From an uncultured archaeon (lineage in GTDB: Archaea > Asgardarchaeota > Thorarchaeia > Thorarchaeales > CAZPUN01), in assembly GCA_964589775.1 (NCBI GenBank), contig CAZPUN010000028.1:1-15042 (forward strand): a stretch of DNA of 15,042 nt. The letters run 5' to 3'. A model generated the notes under the pieces. It did not search any database and had not been told where the DNA came from. It was given only the letters and a program-made list of their open reading frames with translations. Positions 306-12,376 of this stretch are shown here, piece after piece (positions within the stretch are counted from its first letter, which is position 1; every line of letters begins with the position of its first letter). The position numbers and the translations under genes are program-made.

Positions 306-3275
306 TTAGAAGAATTCGCCTTTCTTCAACAGTCTGATTTTGTATGCTTCTAATAAGCCAATTGGAACAGCAGCGGCTGCAAAACATATTAATAAGTCCG
401 TAAACGAAAGGCGAATTACTTCGAGATTGATTCCTGTGTATTGTATTAGTAAGTATTGATATTCGGGGTTAAACATTAAGAGAAAGTGCGCGAATGGTAT
501 CAATAAGACCATAAGCCAGACAAACCAGAAGTTGTCCTCTTTAAGTGATTTTGTAAGTGGCTTATTTATTCTTCTAATGGACAGAACAAGTGTAATTTCA
601 ACAAGGAAGATAACCGTATGGAGCATAGTTCTTGCCTTAGCTTGCTCCCAATTCATGGGTTTAAATCGGTTCGTATCTGAGTACCATTCAAGTGGAATGA
701 AGCCTTGGAAGTTTTCAGAATTTAACGGAATTATTCCATAATATGAACCGAAATAGACGAAATATAATACGAGTGCAAAGGAAACTGCAAACAACCCAAG
801 AGCTTTCCACAAGTACTTATTAAATATAGCTTCTGTATCACGCGGTTTCTCTTTCATGACGCCTTTATCTATTCGGTCGAAAACTATTCCCAGAGGTGGT
901 AACGAATGAGCGGTCATAAATATATAGATCTGCTGCCATGTGTCTAACAGATAAAATCCGGGAATAAATGAACTACCAAAATAAACAAGAGCTTCCGCCA
1001 GATTTACAGCAATGTAGAAGAATATCATGACACGAATTTTTTGGAACAGGCCACGACCTTCTCGAACGCCAACTACAATTGAATTAAACGAATCGTCAGC
1101 TATGACAATATCAGATGCCTGCTTAGCGACATCTGTTCCAGTAATACCCATTGCAATACCTACATCCGCCATTGATAGTGCCAGAGCGTCATTAACACCA
1201 TCACCAGTCATAGCAACAACTCGCTCTTTCTTTTGATAGCGGTCTACAATAACGCTTTTGTGATCTGGCGAGACTCGTGCAAAAACACGCACCTTTTCAA
1301 AATTCTCATCGTCCAGATAAGGAATCTGTCTGCCTTCAACGGCAATACTATTCTCATCAGCAATATCAACTTGGCGAGCGATACTTAGAGCAGTTTCTGG
1401 GCTATCTCCAGTTATCATTACTGGTGTAATACCTGCGTTTTTTGCTTCACGTACTGAATCACGAACACCTTCTCTAGGCGGATCCATGATCGCAACCATA
1501 CCGAGATAGACCAAATTCTGTTCAATAAATTTGCGTTCATTATCATCTCTAGGTGGTAAATCACGCATTTTTCGATATGCCAATGAAATAACACGATAGC
1601 CCATACTGGAGAATTCAGCAGCTTTCTTAAGAATTCGATCTCTATATTCTTGATTGATTGGAACAGCATTTTCCATTTTATCTACGGAAACATAGCTACA
1701 TAATGGAACCATAACTTCAGTAGCACCTTTTGTAAAAACGTAATAGATATCACCTTTCTTGTAAATTTTGGACATTCTCTTTATATTCGAATCAAATGGA
1801 AATTCACGAACAAGTTCATATTCTCGTTTAATCTCAAGTTCATCTAATCCTGATTTTCTAAATAATGTTAGAATTGAAGCATCAGTAGCATCACCAATCG
1901 CCTTATATAAAGTCTGGCCTCTTGGACCTGAGGGATCTTCTACTATTTCACTATCATTATTAAGCAAGCCACAGATTAAAAGCCCAGTGAGTGTTGAATC
2001 CTTTTCCGGTGGCTTTAAAATTGAGCCTTGAATCTTGTTATCAGGTCCCTCTTTTATAATAGTGTCCGTTATGCTATTTTGATTTGGTAGATATATATCA
2101 CCTTTGGGTTCGAATCCGGTACCTGTAACCGCATATAATTGCTCACCACCTGCTGCTGGCGTACAGATCCATTTGACTGTCATTTGGTTTTTAGTTATGG
2201 TTCCAGTTTTATCTGATGCAATTATTGAAATTCGTCCGAGACTTTCAACGGCATTCAAGTTTCTCACAATAACTTTATGTTTTGCCATTGCGAGAACGCC
2301 TGTAAGAAGTACAATTGTAGTCAGGAGTGGAATGTTAATTGGCATAATACTCATACCAGTGACTAAACTTCCAACAAGCTCCGCGATAAACACATCGACA
2401 TTCAATACGCCGCCTATGAATAATTGACCAATTCTCCATAAATAGTAGGTACGATATAAAATTGAGGCAACAAGATATATTACAACACCAATTCCGAGAT
2501 ATTTAGCAAGCTTATTAACCTTCTGTCGTAGAGGAATCTCACCTGTATTTAATTCCTGCAGCTTGCCTGATATTTTACCCATTTCTGTGTTGGCACCAGT
2601 ATGAACAACTACGACTCGTGCTGAACCCGTAGCAACATACGTACCATAAAACACCATATTCGTACGCTGAGATATGGGTGTATCCGGAGGTTTCGCTTCA
2701 CCAATCTCATCTTTCTTTACAGTCTCAGATTCTCCAGTCAAAGACGCTTCATTAACGCTCAAGTTTGCAGACTTGATGATTCTGGCATCTGCAGATACTT
2801 TATCGCCTTCAGATAGCTCAACGATATCTCCCGGGACCAATGCTGTCGTATCAATCTCCTGGAGCTGCCCATTTCGTATTACACGAGATTTAGGAGCGCT
2901 AAGACTTTCAAGAGCTTCCAACTTGGATTGTGCTCGTACTTGCTGAAAGATCGCAATAAAAGCATTTACCGCAATTACAGCTAACCATTGCGTAACCTGA
3001 CCCCACACACTCGGCTGCCACATTGCAAGAATAATTAGAATAGCACAGACTATTAGGTATATATTAATCAACCAGTTTAATAATGGTGCAATGTAGACCT
3101 TGAAAATGCTGCCTTTTACTTTTGGCAACTTATTAGGGCCATATTCTTTCTGACGCCGTATGGCTTCCTCATTATTAAGTCCATTTTCCGGGTCAGTTTT
3201 TAATCTAGAAATAATTTCCTCTAATGGAAGTGTATAAACTTCCTCTTCCCTGATTAAAGCATGTTCGTTCGTCAA
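306..3275 (-). CDS. P-type ATPase, P2 (SERCA/PacL-like) architecture, with a non-canonical transmembrane transport site
   Basis: 989 aa. Motifs: YGPNKLP, LVPGDIV, LTGES (A domain), DKTGTIT (phospho-Asp355), FPFDSNIKRMS, KGATE, DPPR, MITGD, VFARVSP, TGDGVNDALAL. About 10 TM segments. TTG start with GAGG 8 nt upstream. Confidence 0.96.
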   Translation of the reverse strand: MTNEHALIREEEVYTLPLEEIISRLKTDPENGLNNEEAIRRQKEYGPNKLPKVKGSIFKVYIAPLLNWLINIYLIVCAILIILAMWQPSVWGQVTQWLAVIAVNAFIAIFQQVRAQSKLEALESLSAPKSRVIRNGQLQEIDTTALVPGDIVELSEGDKVSADARIIKSANLSVNEASLTGESETVKKDEIGEAKPPDTPISQRTNMVFYGTYVATGSARVVVVHTGANTEMGKISGKLQELNTGEIPLRQKVNKLAKYLGIGVVIYLVASILYRTYYLWRIGQLFIGGVLNVDVFIAELVGSLVTGMSIMPINIPLLTTIVLLTGVLAMAKHKVIVRNLNAVESLGRISIIASDKTGTITKNQMTVKWICTPAAGGEQLYAVTGTGFEPKGDIYLPNQNSITDTIIKEGPDNKIQGSILKPPEKDSTLTGLLICGLLNNDSEIVEDPSGPRGQTLYKAIGDATDASILTLFRKSGLDELEIKREYELVREFPFDSNIKRMSKIYKKGDIYYVFTKGATEVMVPLCSYVSVDKMENAVPINQEYRDRILKKAAEFSSMGYRVISLAYRKMRDLPPRDDNERKFIEQNLVYLGMVAIMDPPREGVRDSVREAKNAGITPVMITGDSPETALSIARQVDIADENSIAVEGRQIPYLDDENFEKVRVFARVSPDHKSVIVDRYQKKERVVAMTGDGVNDALALSMADVGIAMGITGTDVAKQASDIVIADDSFNSIVVGVREGRGLFQKIRVMIFFYIAVNLAEALVYFGSSFIPGFYLLDTWQQIYIFMTAHSLPPLGIVFDRIDKGVMKEKPRDTEAIFNKYLWKALGLFAVSFALVLYFVYFGSYYGIIPLNSENFQGFIPLEWYSDTNRFKPMNWEQAKARTMLHTVIFLVEITLVLSIRRINKPLTKSLKEDNFWFVWLMVLLIPFAHFLLMFNPEYQYLLIQYTGINLEVIRLSFTDLLICFAAAAVPIGLLEAYKIRLLKKGEFF

Positions 3276-3451
3276 TTGGTCTGCCTCAATTAAGTCATAC
3301 CTACATTGTAACTGTTCGTCATACCTTCCCTTTAAAGATTTGGGAGATAATTAAAAAATATTGTGTAAAAATGATATATATAGATTTCTAAGATATTTAG
3401 ATTTTTATTACTTTAATACTTTTATGTATGAATTTACCCTTTATTTTTTGC

Positions 3452-3469
3452 TGTAAATAATAATTCACA
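3452..3469. promoter_or_regulatory. Imperfect palindrome TGTAAA-N6-TTCACA, candidate transcription-factor site
   Basis: One mismatch from the perfect TGTAAA-N6-TTTACA site at 7513-7530. Lies in the intergenic region upstream of the ATPase. Confidence 0.25.
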
Positions 3470-3533
3470 ATTTATTATGATATTTGTTTATTTTTTCACT
3501 AAATTTTCTTGAATATTATTTAAAATTTTCTAT

Positions 3534-3550
3534 AAAAAAGAAAGAAAAAG
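3534..3550 (-). terminator. T-rich terminator after the MFS gene
   Basis: The minus strand reads CTTTTTCTTTCTTTTTT about 14-30 nt after the stop at 3564. Confidence 0.5.
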
Positions 3551-3563
3551 TGAATTTATATTA

Positions 3564-4922
3564 TTATGATACAACGGGCAAATCGTCTTCAAGGTGTATT
3601 TCGATCTTACCGATATCTTCCGGTGCCTTTACGGGTATAAGAATCAACATTGCTAAAACGAAGAATATTGTAAGTGTTAATATTGCCATTCTTTGTCCTG
3701 CTAGAAGCGAAACTACACCGAAAACAAATGGTCCGAGAATTGCAGCAAACTTGCCTGTGAGTGCATAGAATCCGAACATTTCGCTCTTCTTTTCTTCAGG
3801 AATATAACCTGAGAACATTGCTCGTGCTGTCGATTGAGAGCTGCCCATTCCGACTCCCGCAAGCATTGCAACATAGAAGAATGTCATCTTATCGTATGAT
3901 AGATATCCACCGATACAAACTACAATCCAGATCATTAATGTAATAATGAGTGTCTTTTTCGTTCCTATGTGATCAGCGATATATCCGAAGGTAAATGCAC
4001 CTGGAATTGCTGCAAATTGCGTTACGACAAATAGAATCAAAACCTCCATGGTATTATATGCCAAAGTTGTAGTAGCGAAAATAGCCGCAAAGTAGATTAC
4101 GGTTGTAATTGCATCACTGAACAGAAAATACGCAAGTAGGAACTTAGGCAGGCTTGGAAACTTCTTCATTAATCTAAATGAACGGCGAACTCTTGCGAAT
4201 CCAATAGATACGTAACTCTTGCCTTCTTCTTCTGGTCTTTTCTTTGGTGGTCTGGATTTTAAAAGCATAATTGCCGGAACTCCAAATACCAAGAAGAATA
4301 ATGCCGATGAAACAAAAGCTAATCGCACTCCAAAATCGCCGTAGGTGCTCGCAGGAAACATGATTGTGATTATCATTGCTATAATGACTGAGATCATGGC
4401 ACCAACATACCCAAATGCAAAGCCCCAACCACTGATTTTTCCTGTATTTTCAGGAGTGGATATTTCGGGCAGCCATGCATTGTAAAATGGAAGTGCACCT
4501 TGAAATCCAATGTTTGCAATTATAAATAGAATTGCACCCCATATATATGCAGGGATTCCAAATATGTTCAGACTCGGCGTTACAAAATATAATAGCGCCG
4601 TGAATATAATACACAAGAATGTGTAAAACCAGACAAAAGCCTTCTTTTTACCAGAATAATCGGCAATCGCACCAAGTATCGGGGATGTTAATGCAATTAT
4701 AAGCATTGTAATACTACCTGCTAATCCCCAGATATAGTCTCCAAAGTTAGGAATACCGGTCAAAGAATTTGCCATGTCTTTCAAATAAACAGAATATAGG
4801 GCGGTAACTATAATTACCGAAAATGATGTATTCGCAAAATCGTACAACATCCAGCCAAAAACCTCTTTGCGGTCCGGCTTCAGACTCTCATCTTCGACAA
4901 TTTTTTCCTCCGTCTCACTCAT
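3564..4922 (-). CDS. MFS transporter, UMF1 / vacuole effluxer Atg22-like family
   Basis: 452 aa, about 12 TMs. Family motifs WMLYDFANTSF, SPILGAIAD, FYNAWLP, GKISGWGFAFGYVG, FLFSDAITT, QSTARAMFS, EMFGFYALTGKFAAILGP. GGTG SD upstream of the ATG. Confidence 0.92.
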   Translation of the reverse strand: MSETEEKIVEDESLKPDRKEVFGWMLYDFANTSFSVIIVTALYSVYLKDMANSLTGIPNFGDYIWGLAGSITMLIIALTSPILGAIADYSGKKKAFVWFYTFLCIIFTALLYFVTPSLNIFGIPAYIWGAILFIIANIGFQGALPFYNAWLPEISTPENTGKISGWGFAFGYVGAMISVIIAMIITIMFPASTYGDFGVRLAFVSSALFFLVFGVPAIMLLKSRPPKKRPEEEGKSYVSIGFARVRRSFRLMKKFPSLPKFLLAYFLFSDAITTVIYFAAIFATTTLAYNTMEVLILFVVTQFAAIPGAFTFGYIADHIGTKKTLIITLMIWIVVCIGGYLSYDKMTFFYVAMLAGVGMGSSQSTARAMFSGYIPEEKKSEMFGFYALTGKFAAILGPFVFGVVSLLAGQRMAILTLTIFFVLAMLILIPVKAPEDIGKIEIHLEDDLPVVS

Positions 4923-6040: not shown

Positions 6041-6649
6041 CTAAATAAAATACGTAATCTGTCTTCCTTTTGTTTTCTTGCCGATCTTTCCACTATCGAA
6101 CAGTTCCTTTAGGAGTTTTGATGCCATACTCTTTGATATGTTTAAACGTTCTGCCAATTGGTTTATCTGTATCTCTTTCATCTCAAGAATTATCAAAGCA
6201 ATCTTACGAAGATTCTCAGGCAATTCCACAAGAGAGATTGCATCCAATGGTTCTTGCGGATTAATTATCTCTTCTTTTTCACCAATTGGTATTAGGCGGT
6301 CAAGTTCCTTGCTAAAATCATCGAAATGTTTAGGGCGGTCTTTATTATCATCAAGTTCAGTAGCATATTTGCTCAAGAATTTAATTGCAATTGTATCCAA
6401 AAGATTGTCTTCAACATCTTCTGCGTTATCCGAAATAGTTACTACGAGAATAGATTCAAAATCTGCAATCTTTAAAATCAGATTATGCGAATCAATAGAT
6501 TTAACGCCTTTGCCTGTGGTCTCATGACTGAACGAATTAATTGCAGTTATAAAGCTGCTAACCAGAATCGGATCTGAAAGAGATGGATCAAAGTTTTTCA
6601 TAAATATTGGAACCCCGCTGTCTTGAAGTATATAAACTGCCCGTATCAA
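6041..6649 (-). CDS. Longin-like domain fused to a C-terminal winged helix-turn-helix (putative transcriptional regulator)
   Basis: The N-terminal about 120 aa has a longin pattern (IRAVYILQDSGVPIFMKNF..DPILVSSFITAINSFSHET..VKSI..ILVVTIS..IAIKFLSKY..FDDFSKELDRLI). The C-terminus is MarR/TrmB-like wHTH (LPENLRKIALIIL..INQLAERLNISKSMASKLLKELFDSGKIGKKTKGRQITYF). TTG start 6 nt after the MinD stop, with SD AGGAG. Confidence 0.8.
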   Translation of the reverse strand: MIRAVYILQDSGVPIFMKNFDPSLSDPILVSSFITAINSFSHETTGKGVKSIDSHNLILKIADFESILVVTISDNAEDVEDNLLDTIAIKFLSKYATELDDNKDRPKHFDDFSKELDRLIPIGEKEEIINPQEPLDAISLVELPENLRKIALIILEMKEIQINQLAERLNISKSMASKLLKELFDSGKIGKKTKGRQITYFI

Positions 6650-6655
6650 CGTGAA

Positions 6656-7450
6656 TTACTCCTTTTCAATTTTTGCTGCTAGCTCCTTAATCTTATCTGT
6701 AGTCTTTTTTACTTCTTGAACAAAAGGCAATTCCGGCTGGGTAATTGCAAAAATCTCACTACCCATACCCAATGGAACAGTACAATAACACGGGATAAAT
6801 CCAATAATCTCGGAACGGTCTTTGAATGTTTCATCAATGATCTGCATCATGTTTGAGTAATTGGGCTCTTGGAATAGTGGCATTACAACTTTATTAAATA
6901 GAATATATGTTTTTTTATCAAGTGTCTTATATAGATCATCAATTATCTTTACAATTCCGTCGAAATCAAAATTGTCTACTTTTGATACAAGTATAGTGAA
7001 ATCTGAAATGACAATTGCGTTTACACTTCCATAGTGGATTCCCGGAGCCGAATCTAATATCAAATAGTCGATGTTACGAGATTCAAGTTCCTTTTTCAAT
7101 ACAAGCAATTGAGAGAGTGCCTTCATCTGCCACTTGCGGTCCTTCGATAACTGTTCTCGAATAACTCCAACATTCGGATTTGAAAAACTGATTAATAATT
7201 TCGACTTTAGGCCTAGTGTAGGTGCTACGTTAATCAAAATATCTGAAACCTTTGCCTTGTTATCTATATAATCGTTCAAGTATGCTTTATTATCGCTGAT
7301 TCCAAATAGAGTATGCAAACTAGGTGCTGTAAAGTCCATGTCTAGCAATGCTACGTTATGGCCTGCTTGCGCTAATATCACTGCGATGTTTGCAGCTAAT
7401 GTGGTTTTTCCAGTTCCTCCCTTATAACTATGAAATGTGATGCTTTTCAT
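6656..7450 (-). CDS. MinD/ParA-family (SIMIBI) ATPase
   Basis: Deviant Walker A HSYKGGTGKTT, LLDMDFTAPSLHTLFG, Walker B YLILDSAPG, ILFNKV, IGFIP. ATG7450 preferred; GTG7459 is an alternative. Confidence 0.92.
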   Translation of the reverse strand: MKSITFHSYKGGTGKTTLAANIAVILAQAGHNVALLDMDFTAPSLHTLFGISDNKAYLNDYIDNKAKVSDILINVAPTLGLKSKLLISFSNPNVGVIREQLSKDRKWQMKALSQLLVLKKELESRNIDYLILDSAPGIHYGSVNAIVISDFTILVSKVDNFDFDGIVKIIDDLYKTLDKKTYILFNKVVMPLFQEPNYSNMMQIIDETFKDRSEIIGFIPCYCTVPLGMGSEIFAITQPELPFVQEVKKTTDKIKELAAKIEKE

Positions 7451-7481
7451 GAAGACCACTCGCTATTCTATTTTATTTATC

Positions 7482-10100: not shown

Positions 10101-11255
10101 TTAGATATCAATCTGATACATTCTCCAAGTTTTATATCTAACTCCACCCCACTTTTCAGCAGATTTTTGAGAGGGAATATTCTCTTCAAGGATCCACCCA
10201 TAATCAACATCTGTGTAGCCGCGTTCTCGCATCGTCTTAAGTGCAAGATAATTCATGTAAGTTCCATAGCCTTTTCCACGATGTTCTTTCTTTAATGCCA
10301 TGCCCATGGACTTTCCGCGAGTTATGCTACGCTTATAGAACAAGAATCTGATATAATCAATTGCTCCAAAGTTTGGACCGATCCTTCGCATTATCTGGCC
10401 ATAATCTGGAACCATTAAGCGGTAACCTATCGTCTCGCCATCTTTCTTGATCATAAAGAATAATTCGCGGTCTATCAAGATTTTCAAGTCATGCATTAAA
10501 TATTCGAGTTCCTCGATACTTTCTCTGCTGAATCCCCAATGCCCTCGAAATGCTTCGAGCGTAATTTCTGCCCATTCTCTAACATTCTTATCGAAATCCC
10601 CTGCCATTACATAACTTATTGAAATAGAATCGTCGTTCTCAATGCGTTTGACAGTCTCCATTACGCGTTCTGGAATTGGTTTGGTTAGATCTATCTTGTA
10701 TCCATAGAGATCCTTAAACTTTTCAAACCCATACTGTTCTGTTAATCGCTTATAGTATGGTAGATGATATCCTGAGAATGCTCTTTGCTCGACATCATAT
10801 GCATTTTGTAAGAACCCTGCAGGATTCTCGATAGTCAAATCTAATGGACCAATCATTGTGGTTATGTTTTGTGTTGAAAGCCATTCCTTACAAGCATCAT
10901 ATAAAGCCTTGAATACATCATAATCGTTTATAGCTTCAAAGAGACCAAAGAAGCCATTTCGCGCATTCTCAATTCGATTCATGTTATGATCGATAAATAC
11001 AACTGCTCTCCCCACATAATGACCGTTTCGTTCTGCAAGTAATAGATGTGCCTCTGCATAGTTCCAGAAGGGATATCGCTCACTGAATAGAGATTCATCA
11101 TAACCGGGTAATGGTGGTGCCCAGTATGGATTTCCCTCATATATTTTAACGGGTACTTGCTTAAATTTCTTAAAAAGGCTCTTATTAGTAACCTCTTTTA
11201 TTTCAACGTCTCCTGATTTGAAAGAAAAATTAAGCACAGACTTATTGAATATCAT
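10101..11255 (-). CDS. Tandem-GNAT N-acyltransferase, YghO / bacterial ceramide synthase (bCerS)-like family
   Basis: Family motifs IYEGNPYWAPPL, VGRAVVFID, GFFGLFEAIND, MIGPLDL, YHLPYYKRL..GFEKFKDLYGY, GHWGF, acyl-CoA loop EHRGKGYG, GWILEEN, GGVRYKTWRMY. Strong GGAGGT SD. Confidence 0.82.
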   Translation of the reverse strand: MIFNKSVLNFSFKSGDVEIKEVTNKSLFKKFKQVPVKIYEGNPYWAPPLPGYDESLFSERYPFWNYAEAHLLLAERNGHYVGRAVVFIDHNMNRIENARNGFFGLFEAINDYDVFKALYDACKEWLSTQNITTMIGPLDLTIENPAGFLQNAYDVEQRAFSGYHLPYYKRLTEQYGFEKFKDLYGYKIDLTKPIPERVMETVKRIENDDSISISYVMAGDFDKNVREWAEITLEAFRGHWGFSRESIEELEYLMHDLKILIDRELFFMIKKDGETIGYRLMVPDYGQIMRRIGPNFGAIDYIRFLFYKRSITRGKSMGMALKKEHRGKGYGTYMNYLALKTMRERGYTDVDYGWILEENIPSQKSAEKWGGVRYKTWRMYQIDI

Positions 11256-11569: not shown

Positions 11570-12376
11570 TTGATAAATATTAACGAAATTAATGATGAAT
11601 TATTGGAAATACATGAAAATATATTATGCCCGAAATGTGGTGAGGAAATCAAGTTAGATATTGAAATATCAATTAACGAGTTTAAAAAATTTCCAATAAT
11701 GAACTTTTTCATTCCTCATAAGAATTATGAAAAGATACTACAAGTAGGAATTGATAAGGATAAGAACATAAAGATCAATAGGTGCTTTGAGCTTTCTTAT
11801 CAAAATGATGATAATGTTAATTTTCGAGATATTTTTAATAACATTATCTTTAATCCAATAAACGGAATTGATAAGGTGATACGTGCGATAATTCTAGGAG
11901 AAAAAATCTATATAAAAGGCGAGCAGAGACTAGTATCAAATTTCTTGAGAGGTCTGCGATATTTTACAGAATCAGCTGAAAAGCAGATAGCACTTCAAAC
12001 ATATACTCATGAAAATCCCGTTCTAGTAGATTTAGATCGAAGAAAGATAAAAAATGGTCATGAGTGCAAGTTTCTAAAAACTATTTTGAAGCGTCTGGAA
12101 ACATATCCCCTACTGAATTTGGATCAGATAGTTACGTCTCTCGTGCAGCGACTGTATTCAGAGATATACACAATTAATGCTGCGATTAAAAATCAAAAAT
12201 TGAACTCCAAGCTTGTTTATTTGATAGCAAATCACTTGTATGAACTGTATTCTTATTATGAAGCTCTTCTTATTTTAGATGCCACTGTATCGCGATTTCC
12301 CGAATATACTCGATTTATCGATTCTGTAAAAGCCATCTTGAAAAAGAAAACATTTGAAGATCTTTTCAGAATCTGA
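11570..12376 (+). CDS. Hypothetical protein: N-terminal CPxC Zn-finger-like domain plus DENN-like (c/d-DENN) region
   Basis: 268 aa. LCPKCG...PH....ILQVGID, followed by IDKVIRAIILGEKIYIKG..LVSNFLRGLRYF..PVLVDLDRRKI..KFLKTIL, which resembles DENN core motifs. The start codon is uncertain (TTG abuts the GAGG). Confidence 0.6.
   Translation: MININEINDELLEIHENILCPKCGEEIKLDIEISINEFKKFPIMNFFIPHKNYEKILQVGIDKDKNIKINRCFELSYQNDDNVNFRDIFNNIIFNPINGIDKVIRAIILGEKIYIKGEQRLVSNFLRGLRYFTESAEKQIALQTYTHENPVLVDLDRRKIKNGHECKFLKTILKRLETYPLLNLDQIVTSLVQRLYSEIYTINAAIKNQKLNSKLVYLIANHLYELYSYYEALLILDATVSRFPEYTRFIDSVKAILKKKTFEDLFRI

Follow-up and report, generated by a model that had tools for sequence, protein, structure and literature searches.

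A conserved P2-type ATPase subfamily from Asgard archaea with a rebuilt transport site that may carry a small cation other than Ca2+

Few pumps are understood as well as the P-type ATPases, whose subfamilies track their substrates closely. Here we describe a P2-type ATPase, P0001, encoded in a stretch of 15,042 nucleotides from an uncultured archaeon (contig CAZPUN010000028.1; this whole stretch is referred to as the window), together with the clade to which it belongs, recognised by a P-hydrophobic-N-hydrophobic-P motif in transmembrane helix (TM) 4 and a His in TM6. Among described systems, the P2A Ca2+-ATPases (Listeria LMCA1, SERCA1/2 and SPCA1/PMR1) resemble the clade in their five-domain, ten-helix architecture, in the TGES motif and in the site-I residues, and the P2-type 'LP' that follows the TM6 site residue is also common to both; the difference is that the defining Ca2+ ligands are present in P2A pumps and replaced in the clade. 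In the P3A H+-ATPases (AHA2, Pma1 and the archaeal members of TIGR01647) the TM4 Pro is likewise followed by a hydrophobic residue, in the form PIAMP or PVALP where the clade reads PINIP. Their site, which holds few charges and consists of one carboxylate (Asp684) with an Asn partner (Asn106) and a built-in positive counter-ion (Arg655), constitutes the closest working analogy (PMC10654040), although the layout is reversed, the clade having its carboxylate on TM5 and its positive His on TM6. P4 flippases (ATP8A1/2, Drs2p) place an Ile and then a small polar residue after the TM4 Pro, PISL against PINIP or PISIP in the clade, but they carry DGET instead of TGES, whereas the clade has a buried Glu and is a prokaryotic family with bacterial members included. 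Finally, the P1B-4 metal pumps (sCoaT type) have a membrane His in the transport site for which the role of an internal counter-ion has been proposed (PMC10654040); in contrast to the clade they are type I pumps of 6-8 helices with an SPC motif in TM4, and they are distant from it in sequence.

A survey of the Asgard transportome lists only 'orthologs of a putative Ca2+ ATPase' (PMC7997004). In the literature on P-type ATPases of Asgard archaea, on the FUPA families, on the origin of P4 pumps and on the motif PINIP, we found no description of this signature, and a TCDB number for an 'uncharacterised' family is possible. The clade, which is large, highly conserved and widely distributed among Asgard archaea, combines a normal type II motor with a transport site unlike that of any characterised subfamily. 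Identification of its ion would correct the systematic misannotation of these proteins as 'Ca2+-transporting ATPase', would add a new design of ion site, built on a Glu-His pair with site II erased, and would supply a missing piece of Asgard ion physiology.

An intact type II motor and a transport site without the defining Ca2+ ligands

The ATPase gene encodes 989 amino acids from a TTG start codon, with GAGG 8 nt before it and no internal stops. Pfam domains Cation_ATPase_N, E1-E2_ATPase, Cation_ATPase, Hydrolase and Cation_ATPase_C give P0001 the full type II layout, and its score of 260.9 bits on TIGR01494 (P-type ATPase superfamily, HAD-IC; cut-off 62.3) places it in the superfamily. The N- and C-terminal cation-ATPase domains, the ten TM helices and a fold closest to those of SERCA, SPCA and LMCA1 are those of a type II (P2) pump. 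LMCA1 was the best sequence match in the PDB (E=3e-122), followed by SPCA1 and SERCA, and a Foldseek search with the AlphaFold2 model (predicted local distance difference test 86.8, predicted template modelling score 0.81, ten TM helices) returned SERCA1a, SERCA2b, SPCA1 and LMCA1 on top, at ~1e-58. The catalytic motifs were located by script at TGES 180, D355-KTGT, KGA 516, TGD 622 and GDGVND 691. Every one of them is intact: P0001 is an intact pump that should be able to cycle, with the ATP-driven motor (phosphorylation, nucleotide-binding and actuator motifs) unchanged.

The transport site departs from this conservation. The same script placed PINIP at 312-316, N758/E761 in TM5, TAHS at 788-791, E893 in TM8 and Q111-Q112 at TM2, with a spacing of 42 residues from I313 to D355. 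No Arg is found in the helix core of TM5, and TM6 carries His790 and no Asp. In the AlphaFold2 model the TM4 helix breaks at 311-313 and TM6 is unwound at 788-791, that is, at PINIP and TAHS. When P0001 is aligned to LMCA1 and SPCA1 with HMMER, no gap falls between TM4 and TM6, and PINI is paired with PEAL/PEGL and F-M-T-A-H with N-L-V-N-D. E893 was paired with the TM8 Asp of SPCA1 by means of the family profile, as a phmmer search of the PDB with the C-terminal 130 residues alone gave zero matches.

In SERCA numbering, which we take to be E309, N796, T799, D800, E908 and E109 for the aligned residues, P0001 has Ile at E309, Asn at G310, Phe at N796, Ala at T799, His at D800, Gln at E109 and Pro in place of a TM1 Gln, and it keeps the site-I equivalents N758 (N768), E761 (E771) and E893 (E908). 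By homology, Ca2+ site II, to which the E309, N796 and D800 positions belong together with TM4 carbonyls, would be abolished. A remnant of site I would be left, formed by N758, E761, H790 and usually E893, plus a new Asn, N314, on the unwound TM4, and one acidic residue of the cytoplasmic entry funnel would be neutralised (E109->Gln).

An earlier reading of the window's letters, here called the original prediction, had already described intact catalytic motifs in a pump that should cycle, the 42-residue spacing between Ile313 and the phosphorylated Asp355, the retained N758/E761, F786/A789/H790 in place of SERCA N796/T799/D800, and QQ instead of QE in TM2; every motif position and the spacing were verified by script, the gapless LMCA1 and SPCA1 alignments agree with the ligand replacements, and Q111-Q112 are present. 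Two of its details need amending. The segment given as MPINIP at 2328-2342 does contain PINIP, but these coordinates exclude the preceding Met, and the TM8 Glu, kept in P0001, is not universal among its homologs.

Conservation and placement of the clade

We compared the 120 best homologs, which share 46-88% identity with P0001 and have a mean column identity of 48%. P312, I313, I315, E761, H790 and P793 are invariant (120/120), and N758 is found in 117/120, Q112 in 113/120 and N314 also in 113/120, the remainder having S or T at this last position (6/120 read PISIP). E893 occurs in 102/120 close homologs and in 38/40 representatives of the whole clade; Ile-Pro replaces it in a sub-lineage of 17/120 whose named members are Hodarchaeales/Hodarchaeota or Promethearchaeota. 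E761 is the sole invariant buried carboxylate, and only E761 and H790 are invariant among the residues of the remnant site. Since the key residues are 120/120 while mean column identity is 48%, the comparison indicates that the signature is under strong purifying selection, far beyond chance. Drift or a pseudogene is ruled out by the intact open reading frame and by the invariance of the signature in the 120 homologs; the substitutions, expected by the original prediction to be kept if they were no product of drift, also persist in the 40 distant representatives.

The 40 clade representatives were then set against 49 other type II/III (P2/P3) pumps. Position 313 is hydrophobic in 40/40 of the clade and E in 46/49 of the others; position 314 is N in 37/40 against G in 38/49, and position 790 is H in 39/40 against D in 45/49. 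At position 786 the clade has F, Y or an aliphatic residue where 43/49 of the others have N. Likewise, Q is found at position 112 in 34/40 (E in 49/49 of the others) and P at position 64 in TM1 in 36/40 (Q in 42/49), while E761 is kept in 40/40 of the clade and in 35/49 of the others. In an exhaustive search of 1.84 billion representatives the signature was kept down to ~37% identity, with the variants PINLP, PINIV, PVNFP, PFNFP and PWNFP, and under ~500 bits the matches shifted sharply to PEGLP with N..D in TM6.

The homologs that carry names belong to Odin-, Thor-, Heimdall-, Hod-, Njord-, Atabey- and Promethearchaeota, with others in Bathyarchaeia, Nitrososphaeria and, among bacteria, Dehalogenimonas. 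The Asgard host suggested by the original prediction is supported, and homologs with the signature are widespread in Asgard archaea, but they are not confined to them. In a census of 151 genomes sampled across the Asgard phylum, with an ortholog-level match defined as E<=1e-150, an ortholog was present in 95/151 genomes and in 55/72 high-quality ones, being near-universal in some families and not found in others.

P0001 reaches no NCBIfam equivalog cut-off, and its best scores are on type II models (Table 1); P1B models gave ~150-220 bits. Ordinary Asgard PEGLP pumps also stay under the P2A cut-offs, yet they score 544-677 bits, and the PINIP clade is more divergent than they are because its P2A scores are lower. 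Basal members of the clade (PFNFP, PWSFP) score 514-541 bits on P2A models versus 408-451 for the PINIP core, which fits the descent of the clade from a P2A-like ancestor.

Table 1. Scores of P0001 on models of P-type ATPase classes
Model	Class	P0001 (bits)	Cut-off (bits)
TIGR01522	PMR1-type P2A	450.9	798.3
Fungal-type model	IID	405	
PMCA-type model	IIB	396	
TIGR01116	SERCA-type P2A	395.5	703.4
TIGR01647	IIIA (P3A)	332.5	615.5
MgtA-type model	IIIB	304	
TIGR01657	V	230.3	618.25
TIGR01652	IV	120.8	431.25

The clade is real, and it stands outside P2A, P3A, P4 and P5 by the features that define them. It differs from P2A in having PINIP instead of PEGLP and F786/H790 instead of the TM6 Asn/Asp, with scores below the cut-offs of TIGR01116 and TIGR01522. 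From P3A it differs in the TIGR01647 score, in its position outside the P3 clade and in the lack of a TM6 Asp and a TM5 Arg, residues which we assume to correspond to the TM6 Asp acceptor and the TM5 Arg of AHA2. From P5 it is set apart by PINIP in place of PP(E/A)LP and by the TIGR01657 score. The original prediction, in which P0001 fits none of the canonical Ca2+-pump, P3A H+-pump and P4-flippase types, is supported by both motifs and cut-offs.

Trees were built from an all-prokaryotic set of experimentally uncharacterised sequences, namely the clade, PEGLP representatives and other P-type ATPases of related genomes, the last group being labelled via NCBIfam (for example, a true P3A pump of 1029 bits at L032 and a true P3B pump of 759 bits at L025). 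Both FastTree (90 rows) and IQ-TREE under LG+C20 (42 rows) recovered the PINIP clade with support 100, on stems of 0.33 and 0.54 respectively, and in both a P3A+P3B clade stands apart from it (support 98-100). IQ-TREE groups the clade beside a subset of prokaryotic PEGLP pumps (SH-aLRT, the Shimodaira-Hasegawa-like approximate likelihood ratio test, 82; very short branch), and the FastTree backbone is unresolved. These trees place the clade, weakly, among prokaryotic P2A-like pumps and suggest its descent from such ancestors. An independent structural search gave Z 25-32 for P2, P3, P4 and P5 representatives alike and did not separate the classes, a narrow range that probably reflects the dominance of conformational state. 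Structure-based identity was 29-31% to P2A, 27% to P2B, 24-25% to P2C and PfATP4, 22-23% to P3, 19% to P5B and 16-17% to P4 pumps. PfATP4 is a P2-type Na+ pump. Taken as a whole, the clade represents a type II subfamily or variant that is new and experimentally uncharacterised; the 'new pump class' of the original prediction was too strong a term for what is a conserved and apparently uncharacterised subfamily.

Candidate substrates

The reading that we favour, with a probability of roughly 60%, is that the clade protein is a functional P2-type ATPase with a rebuilt transport site that moves one small non-Ca2+ cation per cycle. The first-choice ion would be H+ or Na+, which E761 would carry by binding it or becoming protonated, and H790 may act as the gating partner of E761 or as a built-in counter-ion, in the way that Arg655 serves Asp684 in P3A H+ pumps and a His serves in a P1B-4 pump; this E761-H790 core would be flanked by N314, N758 and usually E893. 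An H+ or small-cation substrate is favoured because the P3A site follows the same logic: one essential carboxylate, an Asn partner and, close by, a residue that is positive or can be titrated. Both the choice of ion and the part played by the His are inferred from this analogy. With regard to substrate classes, H+ or a monovalent cation stands first at somewhat less than even odds; a divalent transition metal or Mg2+ follows as a possible, clearly less probable choice, Ca2+ is improbable, and an organic or lipid substrate is marginally more so. In this sense, the non-metal substrate put forward in the original prediction is still live in the form of a Glu/His-based site for H+ or a small cation, while its lipid or flippase version is unsupported by the TGES motif, the buried Glu and the P4 score.

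Several points weigh against a small-cation pump of this kind. The ligand set of two carboxylates, one His and one Asn would also suit a divalent transition metal, and Arg or Lys would make a stronger fixed counter-charge than His. The contacts among E761, H790, N314 and E893, and the geometry of the site, are drawn only from gapless homology with SERCA. A complementary distribution with P3A H+ pumps was considered and not seen: true P3A pumps occur in 26 genomes and the PINIP pump accompanies them in 23/26, a co-occurrence that speaks slightly against simple redundancy with an H+ pump. The genomic context gives no clue either, as no neighbour was found to be shared between the window and five ortholog loci (from Dehalogenimonas, Atabeyarchaeia, Nitrososphaeria, Thorarchaeota and a 599-kb contig, L021) or among those five, and the 288-bp region upstream of the gene has no Rfam family at the gathering threshold and no riboswitch.

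The strongest competitor of a monovalent-cation pump is a transition-metal pump for Zn2+, Fe2+, Mn2+, Co2+ or Ni2+, in which E761, E893, H790 and N758/N314 would form a metal site and a type II pump would have converged on the role of P1B-2/P1B-4 exporters. We consider it doubtful. Three hard oxygen ligands (E309, N796, D800) have been traded for one invariant imidazole, with two carboxylates in 38/40 representatives, and this ligand shift goes toward borderline metals. His/Asp sites are known from CDF and ZIP transporters and a HEGxT motif from P1B-4 pumps, and the likeness of the rebuilt site to both counts in its favour, as do the presence of CopA as the only P1B pump in the window's genome and a Fur gene 5-6 kb away in 2/5 ortholog loci. 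However, P0001 has neither an N- or C-terminal metal-binding domain nor a Cys in the site; an entire sub-lineage, with Ile at E893, is left with a single carboxylate and the His; the Fur gene is not adjacent and is missing from the other ortholog loci; no metal riboswitch was found upstream; and a neutralised acidic residue at the entry is unexpected for divalent-cation uptake by the pump.

That the clade still pumps Ca2+ (or Mg2+) with site I alone, through N758, E761 and E893, is improbable, even though three of the five SERCA site-I ligands are kept, the nearest solved relatives are Ca2+ pumps, and homologs bear the name 'Ca2+-transporting ATPase' in databases. LMCA1 and SPCA are single-site Ca2+ pumps, a precedent for such a reading, though they work via site II. 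On the other side, D800, the Asp common to both Ca2+ sites, is His (120/120; 39/40 clade-wide), the position of the gating Glu E309 is always hydrophobic, the Glu of the entry funnel is Gln, and the database names are automatic annotation. Moreover, besides P0001 the window's genome encodes just two P-type ATPases, a CPC-type CopA and a canonical PEGLP/N..D pump of the Ca2+ type, and the latter kind is present in most relatives too. Because this canonical pump is encoded in the same genome, the PINIP pump is an additional function and not the default Ca2+ pump of the cell.

The last alternative is a 'giant-substrate' pump for a lipid, a polyamine or another organic cation, in which the TM4 Ile would serve as a hydrophobic gate like that of P4 flippases and which might be kin to the ancestors of eukaryotic P4/P5 pumps. 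The TM4 sequence P-I-(N/S/T)-I, which is PISIP in some members, does resemble the PISL of P4 pumps, the P4-model scores of the clade lie 10-40 bits above those of ordinary Asgard Ca2+-type pumps (105-126 vs 84-99), and the host is an Asgard archaeon; a motif classifier from 2014 likewise assigned some prokaryotic IIA-like pumps to class IV in error, and its authors concluded that they were a specialised class IIA (PMC3896382). Nevertheless, we regard such a pump as very improbable, the least of the readings weighed here, given that the A-domain motif is an invariant TGES and not DGET, an invariant buried E761 and usually E893 are a trait of ion pumps, the P4 score falls far short of the 431-bit cut-off and is small beside the P2A scores of 408-541, ordinary Ca2+ pumps do at least as well on the P5 model (238-244) as the clade does (198-236), the trees put the clade among prokaryotic P2A-like pumps, its structure-based identities are lowest to P4 and P5, no Cdc50-like or other partner is conserved nearby in the window and the five ortholog loci (whole genomes were not searched for Cdc50), the family extends to Dehalogenimonas, Bathyarchaeia and Nitrososphaeria and so is not Asgard-specific, and the P4 likeness is limited to two or three TM4 residues (Pro-Ile-small polar) that P3A pumps have too.

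A lipid flippase, or a role at the origin of P4/P5 pumps, is very unlikely by the same comparisons, and a bearing of the clade on the origin of eukaryotic flippases is not supported on present evidence; the proto-flippase of the original prediction is thus not borne out. A substrate class new to type II pumps (organic cation, lipid head group or ammonium), handled by an Ile-Asn gate and Glu-His recognition, as a prokaryotic example or forerunner of 'giant-substrate' transport, would likewise be a long shot; if true, it would place such transport in the archaeal lineage closest to eukaryotes.

Genomic setting and related pumps

The features of the window are collected in Table 2. The AT-rich region of 288 bp that separates the ATPase gene from its upstream neighbour on the same strand probably holds the gene's own promoter.

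Table 2. Features of the window
Feature	Position	Strand	Basis or remark
P-type ATPase gene (P2-type), protein P0001	306..3275	-	Complete open reading frame; member of the 'P-hydrophobic-N-hydrophobic-P / TM6-His' clade
TM8 Glu893, equivalent of SERCA E908	597..599	-	Profile alignment onto the TM8 Asp of SPCA1
TM6 segment F786-M-T-A-H790-S791, with Phe/Ala/His at the N796/T799/D800 positions	903..920	-	LMCA1 alignment
TM5 segment N758-L-A-E761, retained site-I ligands	993..1004	-	Homolog conservation
Phosphorylated Asp355 of DKTGT	2211..2213	-	Script position; D355-T359 invariant in the 120-homolog alignment
TM4 motif P312-I313-N314-I315-P316, unwound TM4 at the canonical ion site; replaces PEGLP	2328..2342	-	Script position
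A-domain (actuator) dephosphorylation motif T180-G-E-S183, type II/III form, not P4 DGET	2727..2738	-	All four residues invariant
Q111-Q112, cytoplasmic end of TM2; Q112 at the SERCA E109 position	2940..2945	-	Clade comparison
Intergenic region upstream of the ATPase gene, AT-rich, 288 bp	3276..3563	-	Sequence read
Atg22-like major-facilitator transporter, directly upstream of the ATPase gene	3564..4922	-	PF11700, E=1.5e-60
MinD/ParA-type ATPase beside a longin-winged helix-turn-helix protein	6041..7459	-	
Tandem-GNAT protein	10101..11255	-	
268-aa protein	11570..12376	+	No Pfam match

Outside the window, the canonical Ca2+-type pump and the CopA of the same genome correspond to the loci G000:C3:24073-26346 (L010) and G000:C55:28590-30113 (L009), the CopA having an N-terminal heavy-metal-binding domain. 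The sole Rfam hit in the 94 kb scanned was a thiamine pyrophosphate (TPP) riboswitch (RF00059, 61.8 bits) at L021:5651-5759 (-), which lies ~250 bp from the PINIP-pump ortholog of that contig and belongs to thiC, not to the pump.

In some Asgard families, pairs of PINIP-type pumps in tandem on the same strand were found, at L042:601-6579 (G161:C12), L043:623-6601 (G076:C32) and L044:548-6893 (G063:C86). The two copies share 44-45% identity in L042 and L043 and 68% in L044, and each of them keeps PIN(I/L)P, the TM5 Glu and the TM6 His. To judge from these sequences, the pairs look like an old duplication with possible sub-functionalisation.

Related genomes of the same Asgard order (G007, G028, G029, G032 and G040; loci L025-L032 and L040) carry many other P-type pumps. 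Among them are several MgtA-like P3B paralogs, some with PSMLP or PQLLP instead of PELLP, a true homolog of P3A H+-ATPases (PVALP, TIGR01647 1029 bits), a P2C-like pump (PEGLQ) and a PEELP/PEEFP group. One pump of G028:C3, at ~500.6-503.1 kb, is apparently divided between two open frames, one of 483 aa and one of 466 aa.

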